Assembly (NCBI GenBank): GCA_003150515.1
Contig: QALW01000021.1
Span: forward strand, 163,644-227,643
Source of the DNA: Selenomonadales bacterium
GTDB lineage: Bacteria; Bacillota; Clostridia; Christensenellales; QALW01
Direction of reading: 5' to 3'
Length of the DNA stretch: 64,000 nucleotides
This document shows positions 14,959-52,347 of the stretch, piece by piece. Every line of letters starts with the position of its first letter. Position 1 is the first letter of the stretch. A program made the translations under genes and the position numbers. The notes beneath the pieces are model-generated. The model saw nothing but the letters and a program-made list of their open reading frames with translations, made no database searches and was not told the origin of the DNA.

Positions 14959-15115
14959 AAAACATCCAGGGCGCATATAAAGGGGCGGGGCGGCTCGCGG
15001 CCCGGCCTGCGGCCGGGACAGGGGCGTTTTTGCAAAGCAAAAACCGCCCCTGCTTTGGCGCTAGGCACCAAAGCCGCGAGCCGCCCCGCCCCTTTATATG
15101 CACCCTGGATGTTTT
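14959..15115. repeat. GC-rich four-way-junction palindrome (hairpin cluster H1)
   Basis: A 43-bp outer stem (14959-15001 with 15073-15115, one mismatch) encloses three hairpins at 15002-15016, 15019-15052 and 15053-15073. Confidence 0.9.
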
Positions 15116-22657: not shown

Positions 22658-24556
22658 ATGCCCCCTATCGCGCACGCGCACGGCGGAAGAAAGCCTCAAA
22701 ATGCCGCGGCGGCTTTAAAACGGCTATTGAAATATATGCTTAAAAGCAAATGGATGCTCTTTGCCGTATTTATCTTTGTTATTTTTACTTCCCTTGCGGG
22801 CGTTATCGGCACATCCATGCTGGAGCCCATTATTAACGATACTATTCTTCCTCTTGTGGGCATTTCTCCTGTATTTGAGGATTTTCTGCCCCTGCTGAAA
22901 ATGTTGACTCTGCTGGCGCTCGTATATATCATAGGCGCGCTAAGCTCGTATTTCCAGCAGTTTTTTATGATACGCATATCCAACCGCGCCTTGAATAATA
23001 TCAGGCATGATTTATTCAACCGCCTGGAGGATTTGCCTATAAAATATTTTGACACTCATACCCACGGCGAGATAATGAGCCGCTTTACCAACGACGTGGA
23101 TACCGTCCGCGAAGCCATGAGCCAGGGGATAACCCAGCTTATGTCCAGCGCGATAACCATAACCGCGACCTTTATCGCCATGCTTATAAAAAGCCCGCTG
23201 CTTACATTAATTATAGTTTTAATGCTGGTTATAATGCTTTTCATAACAAAATACATAGGCACGCGCTCCTCTAAAAATTTCCGGCTTCAGCAAAAGGCTC
23301 TGGGACGCGCCAACGGCTATATAGAGGAAATAATTGAGGGACAAAAGGTTGTTAAGGTATTCTGTCACGAAAACGCCGTAGAAAGCGAATTTGCCGGGCT
23401 TAACGAAGATTTGCGCCAGGCAGCCACAAGCGCCAACACCTACGCCAGCATTATAATGCCTATTATGGGCAATCTATCCTATGTAAATTACGCGCTTATA
23501 GCGGCTCTGGGAGCATGGATGACCATTTCGGGCATAGGAGGCATGGATATAGGCAAGCTTGCTTCCTTTCTGCAATATTCCCGTTCCTTCTCTCAGCCTA
23601 TCACCCAAATCAGCATGCTCTTTAATTCCATCCTGGCTTCTCTGGCGGGAGCAGAACGAATTTTTGAAGTTATTGACGCTCAGCCCGAGCAGGACAATGG
23701 GACTGTTACGCTGGTAAATTTAAAGCGTTCTCCTGACGGGAATTTAAGCGAATGCTCCCAGCGCACGGGCCTCTGGGCCTGGAAACGCCCGCACGAAGAC
23801 GGAAGCGCGACTTATTCTCAGCTTAAGGGAGACGTACGCCTTGAAAACGTCGTTTTTGCATACCAGCCTGAAAAAACCATACTGCATAATATAAGCCTGT
23901 ACGCCAAACCCGGCCAAAAAATAGCTTTCGTAGGCTCGACAGGCGCGGGCAAAACCACTATAACCAATTTAATCAACCGCTTTTATGAAATAAACGCGGG
24001 CAGTATACAATATGACGGCATAAACATTTCTGAAATAAAAAAGGATTCACTTCGCCGGAGCCTGGCGCTCGTCTTGCAGGATACGCATCTTTTTACCGGG
24101 ACAGTGCGCGAAAACATACGTTACGGACGTCTGGACGCAACGGACAAGGAAGTAGAAGAAGCCGCCAGGCTGGCTAATGCCGACGCTTTTATAAAGCATC
24201 TGCCTGACGGATACGATACTGTGCTAACCTCGGACGGTTCCAATCTCAGCCAGGGACAGCGCCAGCTTATAGCTATAGCGCGCGCGGCTGTAGCCGACCC
24301 GCCTGTGCTCATTCTGGACGAGGCCACCAGCAGCATTGACACCCGAACCGAGCATTTAATAGAACTGGGAATGGATAAGCTGATGCACGGACGGACGGTA
24401 TTTGTTATAGCGCATCGTCTTTCTACCGTCCGCAATGCCGACGCTATTATGGTGCTGGAAAACGGAGAAATAATAGAACGGGGCAGCCATGACGAATTGC
24501 TCGCCCAAAAGGGCAAATACTATCAGCTTTATACGGGCCAGTTCGAATTATCCTGA
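22658..24556 (+). CDS. ABC exporter half-transporter (TMD-NBD), partner of the upstream gene
   Basis: 632 aa. Walker A GSTGAGKTT, signature LSQGQRQL and Walker B LILDEATS. Has a roughly 45-aa insertion between the TMD and the NBD. The start lies 3 nt after the upstream stop. Confidence 0.9.
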   Translation: MPPIAHAHGGRKPQNAAAALKRLLKYMLKSKWMLFAVFIFVIFTSLAGVIGTSMLEPIINDTILPLVGISPVFEDFLPLLKMLTLLALVYIIGALSSYFQQFFMIRISNRALNNIRHDLFNRLEDLPIKYFDTHTHGEIMSRFTNDVDTVREAMSQGITQLMSSAITITATFIAMLIKSPLLTLIIVLMLVIMLFITKYIGTRSSKNFRLQQKALGRANGYIEEIIEGQKVVKVFCHENAVESEFAGLNEDLRQAATSANTYASIIMPIMGNLSYVNYALIAALGAWMTISGIGGMDIGKLASFLQYSRSFSQPITQISMLFNSILASLAGAERIFEVIDAQPEQDNGTVTLVNLKRSPDGNLSECSQRTGLWAWKRPHEDGSATYSQLKGDVRLENVVFAYQPEKTILHNISLYAKPGQKIAFVGSTGAGKTTITNLINRFYEINAGSIQYDGINISEIKKDSLRRSLALVLQDTHLFTGTVRENIRYGRLDATDKEVEEAARLANADAFIKHLPDGYDTVLTSDGSNLSQGQRQLIAIARAAVADPPVLILDEATSSIDTRTEHLIELGMDKLMHGRTVFVIAHRLSTVRNADAIMVLENGEIIERGSHDELLAQKGKYYQLYTGQFELS

Positions 24557-24583
24557 TATATTTCTAAAACCCTCGGCATAATA

Positions 24584-24743
24584 AAAAGGCCGTGATAAGG
24601 GGGGCGTTAAGCCCAATAGGGGGGCGGCGTTTGGCAGGCTGAACCGCCTGCCCGGCCGGAGCCTTCGGCTTCGGCCGGCGGCCCTTCGGGCCGCAAACGC
24701 CGCCCCCCTATTGGGCTTAACGCCCCCTTATCACGGCCTTTTA
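24584..24743. repeat. GC-rich four-way-junction palindrome (hairpin cluster H2), also a probable bidirectional terminator
   Basis: A ~50-bp outer stem (24584-24633 with 24694-24743, one G bulge) is flanked by an A-run and a T-run. It encloses three hairpins at 24634-24651, 24652-24678 (cUUCGg loop) and 24679-24693 (cUUCGg loop). Confidence 0.9.
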
Positions 24744-24779
24744 TTCCAGCATGAATTTTATCGGTATTTTGCAAAAGTA

Positions 24780-24808
24780 TTGACTGACGTAAAAAAAGCC
24801 TTTAAAAT
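24780..24808 (+). promoter_or_regulatory. Putative sigma-A promoter of the FAD-oxidoreductase gene
   Basis: TTGACT (24780-24785), a 17-nt spacer, then TAAAAT (24803-24808). Confidence 0.5.
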
Positions 24809-24868
24809 ATATAAAAAAATAATCAAGCGGCCTTTATTATTACAGCAGGACGTTAAAAGGTGAACAAT

Positions 24869-26167
24869 ATGATTTATAAAAAAGAATTAAAGCAGAAATA
24901 TGATGTAGACGTATTCATAGCCGGAGGAGGTCCTTCCGGCTTTGCCGCCGCAACAGCCTGCGCTCGTCAGGGAAAAAGCGTTTTCCTGGCCGAAAGCCGC
25001 GGCTCATTCGGCGGCGCGGGAACGGTAGGCATGGTGCCTGCGTTCATGTGCTTCGGAGACGGCGTCAACTTTCTTGCGGGCGGAATAGGCCGGGAAATCA
25101 GGGACGCGCTTTATTCCGACAGAAGCAATAACGCTTACGGCTATGCAATACACGCGGAAACCCTTAAACGCCTATATGACAATATGGCCGTAGAAGCCGG
25201 GTTCCATTTCTCCTTTTTCACAACCCTTTCGGATGTAATAGTCTCAAACGGCCGAATAGAATACGCCGTAATCTCCTCCAAAAGCGGCATGTATCTTATT
25301 AAGGCCAAGGTTTTTATAGACGCCACCGGAGACGGCGACCTCTGCGTATGGGCAGGCGCGCAATATGAATTAGGAGACCAAAACCAAAACACCATGCCCG
25401 CAACTTTATGCAGCCTTTGGGCTAATATAGATTTTTCGCGGAGAGACGCCCGGGATGACAGCAGGCTGGAGGAAGCTATAAACGATCATATTTTTACTCT
25501 GGAGGACAGACATCTGCCCGGCATTGCCGACGCAGACCCTCCGCGCGGAGTGGGCGGCGGCAATATAGGCCATTGTTTTAACGTCAATCCTATTGATGAA
25601 GCCTCCCTGACAAAAGCTATGCTTTGGGGACGCAAAACCCTGCCCGAATACGAGCGCTATTACAACAATTACCTCAAGGGCTTCGAACACGCGGGCATCT
25701 GTTCTACGGCAGACCTTTTAGGAGTAAGGGAATCCCGCCGCATAAAAGGCGATTATGAGCTTTGCGCTCAGGATTTTCTTGATAGAGCGGTATTTGAAGA
25801 TGAAATAGGGCGGTATTGTTATCCTGTGGACATACACATCATGGCTCCCGATAAAGAATCATATGAAGCGTTTAAGGCAGAATACGCGCGTTTCAGCTAT
25901 GCCCCGGGCGAATCCTACGGCATCCCCTACCGTTCTCTGCTTCCTGCCGGCCTTTCAAACGTGCTGGTAACAGGCAAATGCATAAGCACGGACCGCCAGA
26001 TGCAAGCCTCCATAAGAGTTATGCCCGGCTGCTACATAACCGGGCAGGCAGCCGGAATAGCGGCGGCGCTGGCCTGTTCCCGCGGCAGCGAAACCCGCGG
26101 CATAGATATAAAAGAGCTGCAGCGCCGCATAAAAAATATGGGCGGTTTTCTCCCCAACGTCCGATAA
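24869..26167 (+). CDS. FAD-dependent oxidoreductase (FAD_oxidored / GlcNAc-type flavoprotein family)
   Basis: Dinucleotide fold DVFIAGGGPSGFAAA. About 432 aa. ATG at 24869 lies 8 nt after AAAAGG. The alternative start is GTG at 24860 (track). Confidence 0.75.
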   Translation: MIYKKELKQKYDVDVFIAGGGPSGFAAATACARQGKSVFLAESRGSFGGAGTVGMVPAFMCFGDGVNFLAGGIGREIRDALYSDRSNNAYGYAIHAETLKRLYDNMAVEAGFHFSFFTTLSDVIVSNGRIEYAVISSKSGMYLIKAKVFIDATGDGDLCVWAGAQYELGDQNQNTMPATLCSLWANIDFSRRDARDDSRLEEAINDHIFTLEDRHLPGIADADPPRGVGGGNIGHCFNVNPIDEASLTKAMLWGRKTLPEYERYYNNYLKGFEHAGICSTADLLGVRESRRIKGDYELCAQDFLDRAVFEDEIGRYCYPVDIHIMAPDKESYEAFKAEYARFSYAPGESYGIPYRSLLPAGLSNVLVTGKCISTDRQMQASIRVMPGCYITGQAAGIAAALACSRGSETRGIDIKELQRRIKNMGGFLPNVR

Positions 26168-26324
26168 GACAACTCAATCAGAATACAATGCTATGCAAAG
26201 GAAGAAATGATCCGTTTTACTGCGCCCTCCTCTTTCAAATATCTTAAATATTTTTAAGAGCTTGCATTAAAACGGACGCGTCTCTTCCGCAAAAAACATT
26301 GTATTCTGATTGATTTATCTAAGC
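26165..26324. repeat. MITE-like repeat family, copy B (complete, compact)
   Basis: The terminal inverted repeat caatcagaatacaatg (26178-26193) is the exact complement of cattgtattctgattg (26297-26312). The arms align with the two arms of copy C in the opposite orientation. The first bases, TAAGAC, include the stop codon of the upstream CDS. Confidence 0.8.
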
Positions 26325-27735: not shown

Positions 27736-27786
27736 CCCATACACACCCTTAATTTTATCATTAGCTAAAATAATTATATTACTTGA

Positions 27787-28068
27787 TTAGACAATATAAT
27801 CAGAGTAAAATGCGTTTTTGCTCAGAGCGCCCGCTGCGTCCTCTTTGCTGCGCGGTCTTAAAATACTCCGGTATGTCTTCGACCGCGCGCCCCGCGGCCT
27901 TTCATTGGGCGCTTTGAGCAAAAATCTTTGACCGCAGAGAAAAGGAGATTTTTTGTTTTGCAAGGCGGCAGGACGCAGAAATATTGGAATATTTCAAGGA
28001 CGACAACGCGGCAAAACGGAAAATCTCCTCCTATGCGGCGCATTGTACTTTGATTGTATTGTCTAAGC
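27787..28068. repeat. MITE-like repeat family, copy C (long form) between the decarboxylase gene and tmk
   Basis: The 28-nt terminal inverted repeats ttagacaatataatcagagtaaaatgcg (27787-27814) and cgcattgtactttgattgtattgtctaa (28039-28066) differ at 3 of 28 positions. A further partial direct copy of the left end lies at 28069-28094. Confidence 0.8.
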
Positions 28069-28093
28069 AATATAATCAGAGCAAAACATCCGC

Positions 28094-40724: not shown

Positions 40725-40756
40725 AGCAGGGTTAAAAATTAGCCCTGCTTTTTTAT
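40725..40756 (+). terminator. Rho-independent terminator of the spoIIIA operon
   Basis: agcaggg (40725-40731) pairs with ccctgct (40743-40749), followed by a T-run to 40756. Confidence 0.7.
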
Positions 40757-40785
40757 TTAAATAATTATGCCCCGGATATAGGCGG

Positions 40786-41061
40786 GGATGGCGAAATGGC
40801 GCCCAGACCGGCATAAATGCCGGCCTGGGCGCCGGGGGCGCGCCGTTGGGCAAGCCTTAAGGCTTGCCCTTGGCCGAGCATAGCTCGGCCCGAGCGGCCT
40901 ACGGCCGCTCAACGGCGCGCCCCCGGCGGCCCCCATTCAAGCGCCCTATAGGGCGCTTGAATGGGGGCCGCAAAAGAGCGTGCAAAGAAAGCAAGCTTTC
41001 TTTGCACGCTCTTTTGCGGGCAAGGCCTGCTTTGCAGGCCTTGCCCGCCATTTCGCCATCC
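40786..41061. repeat. GC-rich nested hairpin array (cluster H3a), 276 nt
   Basis: A closing stem (40786-40799 with 41048-41061) encloses these hairpins:
- 40800-40831
- a four-way junction at 40832-40927, with arms at 40848-40869, 40872-40890 and 40892-40910
- 40927-40970
- 40971-41016
- 41017-41047
The hairpins are tiled with essentially no unpaired spacer. Confidence 0.9.
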
Positions 41062-41079
41062 TAGCCCCTTGCTCTAAAT

Positions 41080-41190
41080 TTCAAAGCCGGCGCAGCATGC
41101 GGCGTTTGGCAGGCTAATAGCCTGCCCGGCCGAACTTTGTTCGGCCCGCGGCCGCAGGCCGCAAACGCCGCATGCTGCGCCGGCTTTGAA
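41080..41190. repeat. GC-rich four-way-junction palindrome (cluster H3b), same core as H2
   Basis: A 29-bp outer stem (41080-41108 with 41162-41190) closes three hairpins at 41109-41125, 41128-41146 and 41148-41162. It shares GCGGCGTTTGGCAGGCT, GCCTGCCCGGCCG and GGCCGCAAACGCCGC with 24625-24705. Confidence 0.9.
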
Positions 41191-50473: not shown

Positions 50474-50658
50474 CTGAGGCCCGCAAATAAATAAGGCGCT
50501 CAAGCGCCTTATTTATTTGCGGGCCTCAGCCTCCTGGCAGGGGTATGCCAATAGTCTTAAAGCGCGGGCGGCTCGCGCTTTAAGACTATTGGCATACCCC
50601 TGCCAGGAGGAACAAATGACGGCCTATGTCCGGCAACGCCGGACATAGGCCGTCATTT
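50474..50658. repeat. Three tandem perfect long hairpins (cluster H4)
   Basis: Three hairpins: 26-bp stem at 50474-50529 (loop tcaa), 37-bp stem at 50530-50610 (loop ggcggct) and 21-bp stem at 50614-50658 (loop aac). All stems are perfect. Confidence 0.9.
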
Positions 50659-51935: not shown

Positions 51936-52136
51936 CAGGTTTGCCTCCTTAATGCGCCTTAACAGGGTATGGGCGCTTCAAATTGCTACCCTATGGCAAT
52001 AATTATGCCTCTTGTTTTTAATTTATGCACGCATTATAACACGAGTGAAATGAAAATGCAATAGTTTTGTAATATTTAATTGTGAATTTTTTATGTGCGC
52101 CTTTTTACGAGGAAATATTTTAAAATTTTTCAGGCT

Positions 52137-52309
52137 GGCCCTGGGCGCGTAAACGCGCCCAGGGCCAAAGTCTCAATATAGCCCGGAAAGCTTTGCTTTC
52201 CGGGCTATATTGAGACTTTGCGCCCGGCCTAAAGGCCGGGCGCAGCCCTTTAAATAAACGGCCGATGGGCTCAAGATATCAAAAATGATATCTTGAGCCC
52301 ATCGGCCGT
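52137..52309. repeat. Four tandem perfect hairpins (cluster H5)
   Basis: Four perfect hairpins at 52137-52166 (13 bp, taaa), 52167-52219 (25 bp, ttt), 52220-52243 (10 bp, taaa) and 52258-52309 (24 bp, aaaa). Confidence 0.9.
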
Positions 52310-52347
52310 AATTTAAAAATAACTCAATTAAATCAGTTAAAAATAAA

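Follow-up and report, generated by a model that had tools for sequence, protein, structure and literature searches.

A Previously Undescribed Family of GC-Rich Palindromic Intergenic DNA Repeats With a Cloverleaf Core in Christensenellales

Introduction

The closest described counterparts of the element reported here are the repetitive extragenic palindromic (REP) sequences of proteobacteria and the related BIME and REPIN elements, which are mobilised by the REP-associated tyrosine transposase RAYT and whose unit is a 20–40-nt imperfect hairpin or doublet. Our subject is a cloverleaf-shaped palindrome at positions 41080–41190 of a 64,000-nt stretch of a Selenomonadales bacterium genome (GCA_003150515.1, contig QALW01000021.1, positions 163,644 to 227,643, forward strand; Christensenellales in the GTDB lineage), a stretch that was analysed as a whole and is called the window below. 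This cloverleaf is a copy of a previously undescribed, Christensenellales-specific family of GC-rich palindromic intergenic DNA repeats, no description of which was found in the searchable literature. The family resembles REP, BIME, and REPIN elements in being present in many copies, intergenic, palindromic, clade-specific, non-coding, and non-autonomous, and in sharing their bias to gene 3' ends and their scarcity between divergent genes. It differs in its unit, a four-way junction of ~80 nt, and in its surroundings; REP and REPIN copies share their whole sequence, whereas each cloverleaf copy has a unique perfect outer stem of 15–54 bp. The consensus of 55 copies also lacks the GTAG-type 5' tetranucleotide of REP, BIME, and REPIN elements, and no RAYT (Y1/HUH transposase) gene was seen in the ~8-kb pieces around copies, whole genomes not having been searched.

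Short GC-rich hairpin modules that stand singly, in tandem, or in multiples are likewise known from mitochondrial genomes of yeast, Allomyces, and sponges as GC clusters, double-hairpin elements, and repetitive hairpin-forming elements, which like the cloverleaf family are non-coding and combine conserved stems with variable loops (PMC4478555, PMC2800124). They are presumed to be mobile, with no known enzyme or function (PMC4478555, PMC2800124). They differ from the cloverleaf family in being organellar, and they have not been described with long copy-specific perfect stems or a fixed three-hairpin junction. A third comparison concerns a process. A single event of template switching during replication is documented to yield perfect stems, compensatory changes of several bases, and inverted loops (PMC8794818), and the cloverleaf family resembles the products of such switching (Ripley quasipalindromes) in these features as well as in mirrored insertions and stem extension (PMC8794818, PMC5941160). 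The family displays strict Watson–Crick arms, mirrored multi-base changes and indels, loop inversions, and strand symmetry, all of which are hallmarks of this process. Template switching has been documented as a sporadic event in rRNA, miRNA, and short inverted repeats, however, and not as a genome-wide process on dispersed repeats with 30–50-bp stems and nested junctions.

Two further systems bear resemblances only. The inverted terminal repeats (ITRs) of adeno-associated virus (AAV) also place a long stem around small internal palindromes, form a T-shaped or cloverleaf DNA hairpin, and exist with flip and flop interiors, but they are terminal on a linear single-stranded DNA (ssDNA) replicon, have two internal hairpins, and contain Rep-binding and nicking sites. 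No Rep gene was seen near cloverleaf copies. Identification as a parvovirus-type ITR or hairpin telomere was rejected, given that the elements lie within chromosomal contigs and among housekeeping genes and have no viral, phage, or plasmid matches. The ssDNA priming signals of the phage G4 origin, with three hairpins, and of RSF1010 ssiA consist of clustered short GC-rich hairpins with cGNAg triloops (PMC13037366), and the hairpin 3 apex of many cloverleaf copies, CCGAAGG, is identical to the RSF1010 ssiA mini-hairpin (PMC13037366). These signals are single, strand-specific, and carried by phages or plasmids, in contrast to the roughly hundred chromosomal cloverleaf copies in random orientation. 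What is unusual for interspersed palindromic repeats is the combination of a four-way-junction core with copy-specific perfect arms that evolve in concert.

The Cloverleaf at 41.1 kb and Its Relatives in the Window

An earlier note, made from the letters of the window alone, described a 29-bp outer stem closing three hairpins at 41080–41190, and both the predicted fold and a 29-nt inverted repeat bear this out. The element forms a perfect stem of 28–29 bp that encloses hairpins of 8, 8, and 6 bp with 3-nt loops. Folded as RNA it reaches -97.7 kcal/mol against a shuffle mean of -49.0 (z = -13.2, 200 dinucleotide shuffles), and as single-stranded DNA it adopts the same shape on either strand (-66.6 kcal/mol for the plus strand, -67.7 for the minus strand). 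Its parts are as follows.

41080–41190, no strand: whole 41.1-kb element, copy-specific outer stem plus cloverleaf core (inverted repeat of 29 nt, 100% complementary)
41080–41098, no strand: 5' arm of the outer stem, copy-specific part, TTCAAAGCCGGCGCAGCAT, in perfect pairing with 41172–41190
41172–41190, no strand: 3' arm of the outer stem, copy-specific part, partner of 41080–41098
41096–41174, plus strand: family core of the 41.1-kb copy (covariance model 84.6 bits, E = 1e-13; multiple alignment)
41127–41162, no strand: 36-nt two-hairpin module (hairpins 2 and 3), whose presence differs among strains

The core consists of the junction stem GGCGTTTG/CAAACGCC and the hairpins GGCAGGC-TAATA-GCCTGCC, GGCCGAAC-TTT-GTTCGGCC, and GCGGCC-GCA-GGCCGC, while the arm TTCAAAGCCGGCGCAGCAT is found in no other family copy. 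Sequences compared with the window are referred to by L numbers. In strains L001 and L005 the 36-nt module is exactly absent, leaving a simple perfect hairpin of 36 bp, and in the window and L002–L004 it is present. The module belongs to the family consensus, so its absence is more simply read as a deletion running precisely across the hairpin bases.

Within the window the covariance model detects three members, the core at 41.1 kb and two others, at 24.6 and 40.8 kb, each of them on the plus strand. These are listed below with a fourth structure of the same shape.

24584–24742, no strand: 24.6-kb element, outer stem of 34-bp and 20-bp perfect segments offset by a 1-nt bulge
24621–24706, plus strand: family core of the 24.6-kb element (covariance model 73.6 bits, E = 1e-11)
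40827–40931, core 40837–40921 on the plus strand: third family copy, which has diverged further and is enclosed by an outer stem of its own (65.7 bits, E = 4e-10, against the covariance model; fold)
14959–15115, no strand: topological look-alike, 43-bp stem plus three hairpins (-136.1 kcal/mol, z = -14.8)

Three junction blocks had been reported as common to the 41.1-kb and 24.6-kb elements, and GCGGCGTTTGGCAGGCT, GCCTGCCCGGCCG, and GGCCGCAAACGCCGC do occur at both; exact matches to GCGGCGTTTGGCAGGCT and GCCTGCCCGGCCG within the window are confined to these two places. Between the blocks the arms differ and yet pair, as had been claimed, with a single G.T pair in hairpin 2 of the 24.6-kb element. 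The statement that both outer stems are perfect holds at 41.1 kb and fails at 24.6 kb, where the bulge interrupts the pairing. Four instances of the one topology had also been counted. All four folds are real, but only three, among them 40832–40927, are related in sequence, and 14959–15115 shares the shape alone, scoring only 27.6–32.6 bits against the family model on both strands.

Copy Number and Range of the Family

A search for the core pattern, which the earlier note had suggested, placed it far beyond the two sites first noticed. The exact pattern GGCGTTTGGCAGGC-N3-8-GCCTGCC, scanned in one genome per species, gave 72 loci, and a metagenome scan for the core pattern gave at least 118. 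Among the genome-scan sources, 41 stretches belong to one metagenome-assembled genome (MAG) of Candidatus (Ca.) Neochristensenella gallicola, 19 to the uncultured Clostridiales UMGS1037, and a further 4 to UMGS474 and Ca. Pelethousia gallinarum. A handful of pattern matches outside Christensenellales (Acidobacteriota, Bryobacteraceae, and others) were set aside as unrelated; they lack the cloverleaf, and several lie beside tRNA-like repeats. A profile built from 55 copies recovered 162 full-length members in 1.87 Mb of retrieved Christensenellales and metagenome DNA. There are further sub-families in which the junction stem itself covaries, such as GGCTCTTTG/TAAGAGCC and GCCGTCCG/TGACGGC. Extrapolation from three copies per 64 kb and from the 41 stretches of one fragmented MAG suggests on the order of a hundred copies per genome.

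Comparison with existing collections returned no counterpart. No Rfam family reached its gathering score anywhere in the window, and in E-value mode only generic hairpin and miRNA models appeared, far below threshold; ARAGORN reported no tRNA or tmRNA, and no matches to the family were found in viral contigs, phage records, or plasmid records. A tRNA or tRNA-like identity was rejected on the ARAGORN result and on the loops, which have 3–4 nt instead of the 7 nt required of anticodon and T loops. The earlier note had also proposed looking for an association of the copies with a particular gene family, and none emerged: when the 651 open reading frames in 270 kb around the 41 loci of the Neochristensenella MAG were clustered, no transposase or recurrent gene was found near the copies, only ordinary paralogues such as ABC (ATP-binding cassette) ATPases.

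Copies prefer gene 3' ends. Of 36 classified copies, 17 lie between convergent genes, 17 between tandem genes, and 2 between divergent genes.

Pairing in the Core and in the Outer Stems

The core is a four-way junction of ~80 nt in which the closing stem GGCGTTTG/CAAACGCC is joined to three short hairpins with 3–4-nt loops. Read from left to right, the consensus comprises the copy-specific outer stem, GGC-GTTTG, GGCAGGC-loop-GCCTGCC, GGCCGRGC-loop-GCYCGGCC, GCGGCC-loop-GGCCGC, CAAAC-GCC, and the reverse complement of the outer stem. In the alignment of 55 copies the consensus spans ~84 positions with 34 pairs, 17 of which show compensatory changes, and 97.6% of the cells at paired positions are paired. 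Both-sided changes number 163 cells against 42.9 in shuffled alignments (none of 500 shuffles was as high) and at most 54 in slid controls, while one-sided changes of the G-U type are few (~18 cells); at one position of the junction, a T.G pair is seen in five copies. The earlier suggestion that arm substitutions are compensatory, made from two copies, therefore extends across the family.

Around this common centre each copy has an outer stem of its own. Measured in 65 copies, the outer stems have a median length of 23 bp ungapped (26 nt with bulges allowed) and reach at most 54, and their 1407 pairs comprise 1383 Watson–Crick pairs, 9 G.T, 7 A.C, and 8 other mismatches. Their sequences are unique to every copy, orthologous loci excepted. 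More than ~10 nt from the core, their GC content is ~46–68%, scattering around the local flank value of 54%. The outer inverted repeats thus differ from copy to copy, and the stem ends show no evident direct repeats; a miniature inverted-repeat transposable element (MITE) was accordingly rejected as an identification, the termini being unique per copy and without target-site duplication. A T-rich tail on the right was seen in 1 of 58 copies and an A-rich stretch on the left in 2 of 58, no more than in controls. Some outer stems (e.g., L057, L074, and the 24.6-kb element) finish in paired A-runs and T-runs like those of bidirectional terminators. Rho-independent terminators were rejected as well, as no T-run follows the outer stems and a terminator scan flags only the separate spoIIIAH terminator at 40725–40757.

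Strand Symmetry, Inverted Cores, and Loops

The family shows no preference for one strand. In tandem contexts the core points in the direction of the upstream gene in 10 cases and against it in 7, and relative to local GC skew 57 cores lie on the same strand and 55 on the opposite one (p = 0.92). Loops and their reverse complements are nearly equal in number (TTC 48 and GAA 36, AAA 26 and TTT 25, TGC 25 and GCA 23), and individual loops are found inverted among strains, as ATA/TAT at 40880–40882, CGATAG/CTATCG at 40945–40950, and TGAC/GTCA in L036 versus L149. Whole cores are inverted as well. At 24.6 kb the core of L014, which also has a 22-nt deletion, is inverted relative to the flanks when compared with the window, and further inversions at orthologous loci distinguish L076 from L089, L043 from L070 (twice), and the 24.6-kb element of the window from L084. 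For the single pair in which this could be tested, independent assemblies reproduce each orientation, L178 that of L076 and L170 that of L089.

The loops themselves are of a distinctive kind. Across 129 distinct cores (L020–L215 and the window), 250 of 385 loops are triloops, 64% of the triloops are GNA or TNC, and 119 triloops are closed by a C.G pair and so correspond to the d(cGNAg) mini-hairpin on one strand or the other. Among DNA motifs this mini-hairpin is known for its exceptional stability, for which the C.G closing pair is required (PMC3201870, PMC13037366). Because G.T pairs do not exceed A.C pairs, orientation is random, loops and cores are flipped symmetrically, the loops are of DNA type, and T-runs are lacking, the best reading of these sequence patterns is that the structure belongs to DNA and not to a strand-specific RNA.

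Divergence of Orthologous Copies

In species with ~80% identity in the coding flanks, elements are found at the same intergenic positions, and between such species the core and the arms behave differently. The core is 93% identical in L076 and L089, compared with 80% in the coding flanks, while the outer arms have diverged strongly and are still perfectly or nearly perfectly self-complementary. Orthologous arms in L064 (GTCTCACCGGTTGGC--AAAAGG-GCGGGC), L081 (GTCAC-CCAGTCAGCCTAAAAGGTGCGGGC), and L187 (AAGTCTCCCCCTTTAGCCTCGGCGGGC) differ by 8–10 substitutions plus indels, all of them mirrored in the partner arm, self-complementarity being perfect in L064 and L187 and broken by one mismatch in L081. 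In L076 and L089 the inner 18–22 bp of the stem are common, and the outer 12 bp are unrelated, yet palindromic in each. The 24.6-kb element is orthologous to a Neochristensenella element (L084:2607–2692), and the two pairs of arms share only a GCCCAAT block, being otherwise different and perfect.

The same pattern is seen over shorter distances. Two mirrored substitutions separate L014 from the window, their flanks being ~99% identical, and L149 differs from L036 at strain level by a mirrored 1-nt insertion. Partial hairpin deletions separate near-identical strains in three comparisons (L194 and L035, L202 and L037, L170 and L089). Plain hairpins nearby show the same behaviour as family copies.

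The arms thus outpace coding DNA while remaining paired, which points to templated copying from one arm to the other, selection being slow and hardly able to mirror indels. Compensatory evolution under selection alone is reportedly expected, from established population-genetic theory (Stephan 1996, as cited in PMC8794818), to be far slower than neutral change. The earlier note had left the choice between a selected structure and a templated copying mechanism that regenerates palindromes, and Watson–Crick pairing, mirrored indels, flips, and the lack of strand bias all favour the latter.

A Proposed Mechanism and Alternative Explanations

From these comparisons we consider it moderately probable that the cloverleaf elements are a REP-like family of DNA palindromes whose arms are kept and extended by templated arm-to-arm copying, as opposed to a strand-specific RNA. 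The inherited unit would be the ~80-nt four-way junction with hairpins of the GGCAGGC, GGCCGRGC, and GCGGCC types, and each copy surrounds this junction with a long, near-perfect inverted repeat of its own and of local base composition. One arm would be recopied repeatedly from the other, so that complementarity is kept. While DNA is being replicated or repaired, the likely route would be either intramolecular template switching or hairpin-directed conversion. Such copying could also invert loops and whole cores in a flip-flop manner, mirror substitutions and indels into the partner arm, and lengthen stems outward into the flanks. Polymerase slippage across stable hairpin bases may account for the deletion of whole modules, such as the 36-nt module in L001 and L005, and the very stable mini-hairpins of the cGNAg type are probably seeds that stall synthesis and provoke switches. 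Both the template-switch mechanism and this seed role are what we infer from the comparisons. The elements are probably dispensable, i.e., selfish or neutral like REP and MITE elements, and any function would be at most that of an orientation-independent barrier at transcript ends. At one locus dispensability is directly suggested, as the relative L094 has no palindromes in the spacer between spoIIIAH and the hydrogenase gene.

Several observations weigh against this explanation. In the 40.8–41.2-kb cluster, 5–10 strains of the window's species differ by ~11 polymorphisms in loops and junctions, the loops being hot spots, and by 3–4 unmirrored stem changes, with no mirrored change among them. 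Correction of the arms must therefore take time, and the stems may also be under purifying selection. Relatives without the elements (L094, L132) provide no clean empty site that would tell insertion into an existing hairpin from outward growth, as their whole spacer has turned over and is unalignable. Template switching leaves unexplained both the sequence conservation of the core and the spread of copies to about a hundred loci, and, as described above, no transposase or recurrent gene lies beside the copies in the 270 kb examined from one MAG. All sequences come from short-read metagenome assemblies, which are prone to breaking or mis-joining at palindromes.

The very strong covariation, the bias to gene 3' ends, the better conservation of the core than of the coding flanks, and the T.G pair at one junction position in five copies would also suit a structured non-coding RNA family, in which the cloverleaf is selected as RNA, for instance as a tRNA-like processing signal, a 3'-end protection, or a terminator. 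We regard this as unlikely: the copies show no orientation bias by neighbouring genes or by GC skew, have cores inverted at orthologous loci, and carry loops and their reverse complements in parity, with enrichment for a stable loop motif specific to DNA. G.T pairs are not in excess over A.C pairs in the outer stems (9 versus 7) and one-sided changes are rare, no U-run follows the outer stems and a canonical terminator is present separately, Rfam and tRNA matches are lacking, and 30–50 perfect base pairs with mirrored indels exceed what RNA selection would be expected to produce. The palindromes could also be artefacts of chimeric or fold-back reads in sequencing or assembly, as might be suspected from contigs that often end inside elements and from homopolymer and arm irregularities in some low-coverage copies. 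This is highly improbable, since many independent samples, processed with different assemblers, yield exactly the same sequences (ENA, JGI, and NCBI data; megahit, SPAdes, and idba) and orthologous copies occur in different species.

The remaining alternatives concern how the core came to lie inside its stem. Insertion sequences that target hairpin loops are known, e.g., IS1397 in REP elements, and small mobile core or hairpin modules might similarly insert specifically into the loops at the apex of hairpins that were already there, terminators for instance, in which case the outer stems would be older host hairpins. These genomes do contain many plain long hairpins without the core, the elements occupy terminator-like positions, some outer stems end like bidirectional terminators, and hairpins 2 and 3 act as a 36-nt indel in a simple hairpin; however, the origin of perfect host hairpins of 20–50 bp, the mirrored differences of orthologous stems, and the differing yet palindromic outer 12 bp of L076 and L089 would all be left unexplained, an empty plain-hairpin allele with the same arms was not found, and no transposase gene recurs near copies, so that we consider the insertion scenario improbable. 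By analogy with parvovirus-like rolling-hairpin priming or hairpin-telomere chemistry, it is also conceivable, but quite improbable, that a new mobile element builds its own inverted repeats, the cloverleaf priming itself or being served by a dedicated enzyme while the flank is copied backwards into an inverted target duplication. Such an element would place a conserved centre between unique inverted host-like sequence in every copy, as observed, and the flip-flop of the centre resembles that of AAV ITRs, while the cGNAg mini-hairpin loops recall ssDNA priming sites. Set against this are the lack of a candidate enzyme gene near copies and of matches in viral, phage, and plasmid collections, the occupation of the same loci in ~80% identical species, with no recent mobility evident, and the like behaviour of plain hairpins without a core. 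A more speculative extension of arm-to-arm copying, which we hold to be rather unlikely, would make the cGNAg modules the seeds of a self-propagating process, i.e., a new class of non-autonomous element that is spread by an enzyme or as folded ssDNA, provokes fold-back copying of the flank, and so builds and repairs its own inverted repeats and nested junctions; in a variant, the three-hairpin units would be chromosomal G4-like or ssi-like ssDNA signals for priming or fork handling.

The family is a counterpart in Firmicutes (gut Christensenellales) to the proteobacterial REP and REPIN elements, with an unusual architecture. Its high copy number makes it a natural system in which to measure the creation, extension, flipping, and upkeep of perfect hairpins, and with hundreds of replicate loci in each genome the template-switch account of "compensatory" evolution could be put to the test. 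The family also calls for caution in covariation-based RNA discovery, because very strong covariation here most likely reflects copying at the DNA level and not selection on RNA. In practical terms, short-read assemblies of a gut lineage that is common in humans and animals are broken and flipped at these elements, which also mark rearrangement points.

Other Palindromes and Genomic Setting

The family copies are part of a wider population of palindromes in the window. Perfect hairpins with stems of 10 bp or more number 14, and in 9 of these the stem reaches 15 bp or more, whereas twenty dinucleotide shuffles of the window contain a mean of 0.75 hairpins of at least 10 bp and none of at least 15 bp. 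This near absence from shuffles excludes a chance origin. The long hairpins are gathered in five intergenic spots, at 14.96, 24.6, 40.8–41.2, 50.5, and 52.2 kb, and include the following structures besides those listed above.

40781–41066, no strand: enclosing multi-branch palindrome (-262.1 kcal/mol, z = -22.6; inverted repeats)
50474–50658, no strand: run of three plain perfect hairpins that abut, their stems measuring 27, 37–40, and 21 bp, without a family core
52136–52318, no strand: four abutting plain perfect hairpins without a family core, one apex of which is found again in other genomes

The 280-nt palindrome at 40781–41066 has an outer stem of ~20 bp around five sub-structures, namely the 40.8-kb family copy and four plain perfect hairpins. 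In the group at 52.2 kb, the apex of the hairpin at 52166–52220 (CCGGAAAGC-TTT-GCTTTCCGG) is found again capping unrelated hairpins in L030 and L132, and 52219–52244 matches L173. Plain hairpins that share apices and have unique outer parts (52166–52220, L030, L132) fit a model of small stable seeds and outward growth.

The look-alike at 14959–15115 lies between divergent genes, an icd-like gene on the minus strand and the argC-argB-argD-argF operon on the plus strand, and hence in a promoter region, a context that is rare for the sequence family (2 of 36 classified copies). A similar structure is seen in L092:3370–3580 (88% SpoIIIAH identity), downstream of spoIIIAH, where a 45-bp perfect stem encloses three hairpins of unrelated sequence. 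With these two examples, the shape of one stem plus three hairpins recurs beyond the sequence family.

The genes flanking the window's elements are chromosomal housekeeping genes of spore-forming Clostridia. The spoIIIAA-AH operon lies upstream of the 40.8–41.2-kb cluster, on which a [FeFe]-hydrogenase gene converges, and the gene upstream of the 24.6-kb element encodes an ABC exporter. The SpoIIIAH protein of the window is identical to proteins labelled "Christensenellaceae bacterium" in public MAGs and is encoded on hundreds of gut-metagenome contigs. Its gene has an ordinary terminator of its own.

40725–40757, plus strand: intrinsic terminator of spoIIIAH (terminator scan), separate from and upstream of the palindrome cluster

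This terminator is kept in L094, in which the spoIIIAH–hydrogenase spacer measures 326 nt (flanks of ~84% nucleotide identity), compared with 524 nt in the window.

Many of the gut-metagenome contigs that encode SpoIIIAH stop within the palindromes, and independent public contigs of the window's species do so repeatedly, at ~40.85–41.13 kb in L005–L010 and at ~24.67–24.71 kb in L016–L019, making the palindromes systematic assembly breakpoints for this gut lineage. In L015:11899–12260, the orthologue of 24556–24860, a gene for a purL-like formylglycinamide ribonucleotide (FGAR) amidotransferase stands downstream of the core in place of the flavin adenine dinucleotide (FAD) oxidoreductase gene. 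The junction in gene order falls inside hairpin 3 or the closing stem; either the chromosome was rearranged by way of a family copy, or the assembly is a chimera joined across the repeat.

Finally, two AT-rich intergenic elements at 26167–26320 and 27783–28070 have related inverted termini (AGACAA..AATCAGARTAMAATG and CATTGTAYTYTGATTG..), and inverted repeats are nested within the second. Both resemble copies of one small MITE-like element that is unrelated to the GC-rich family.

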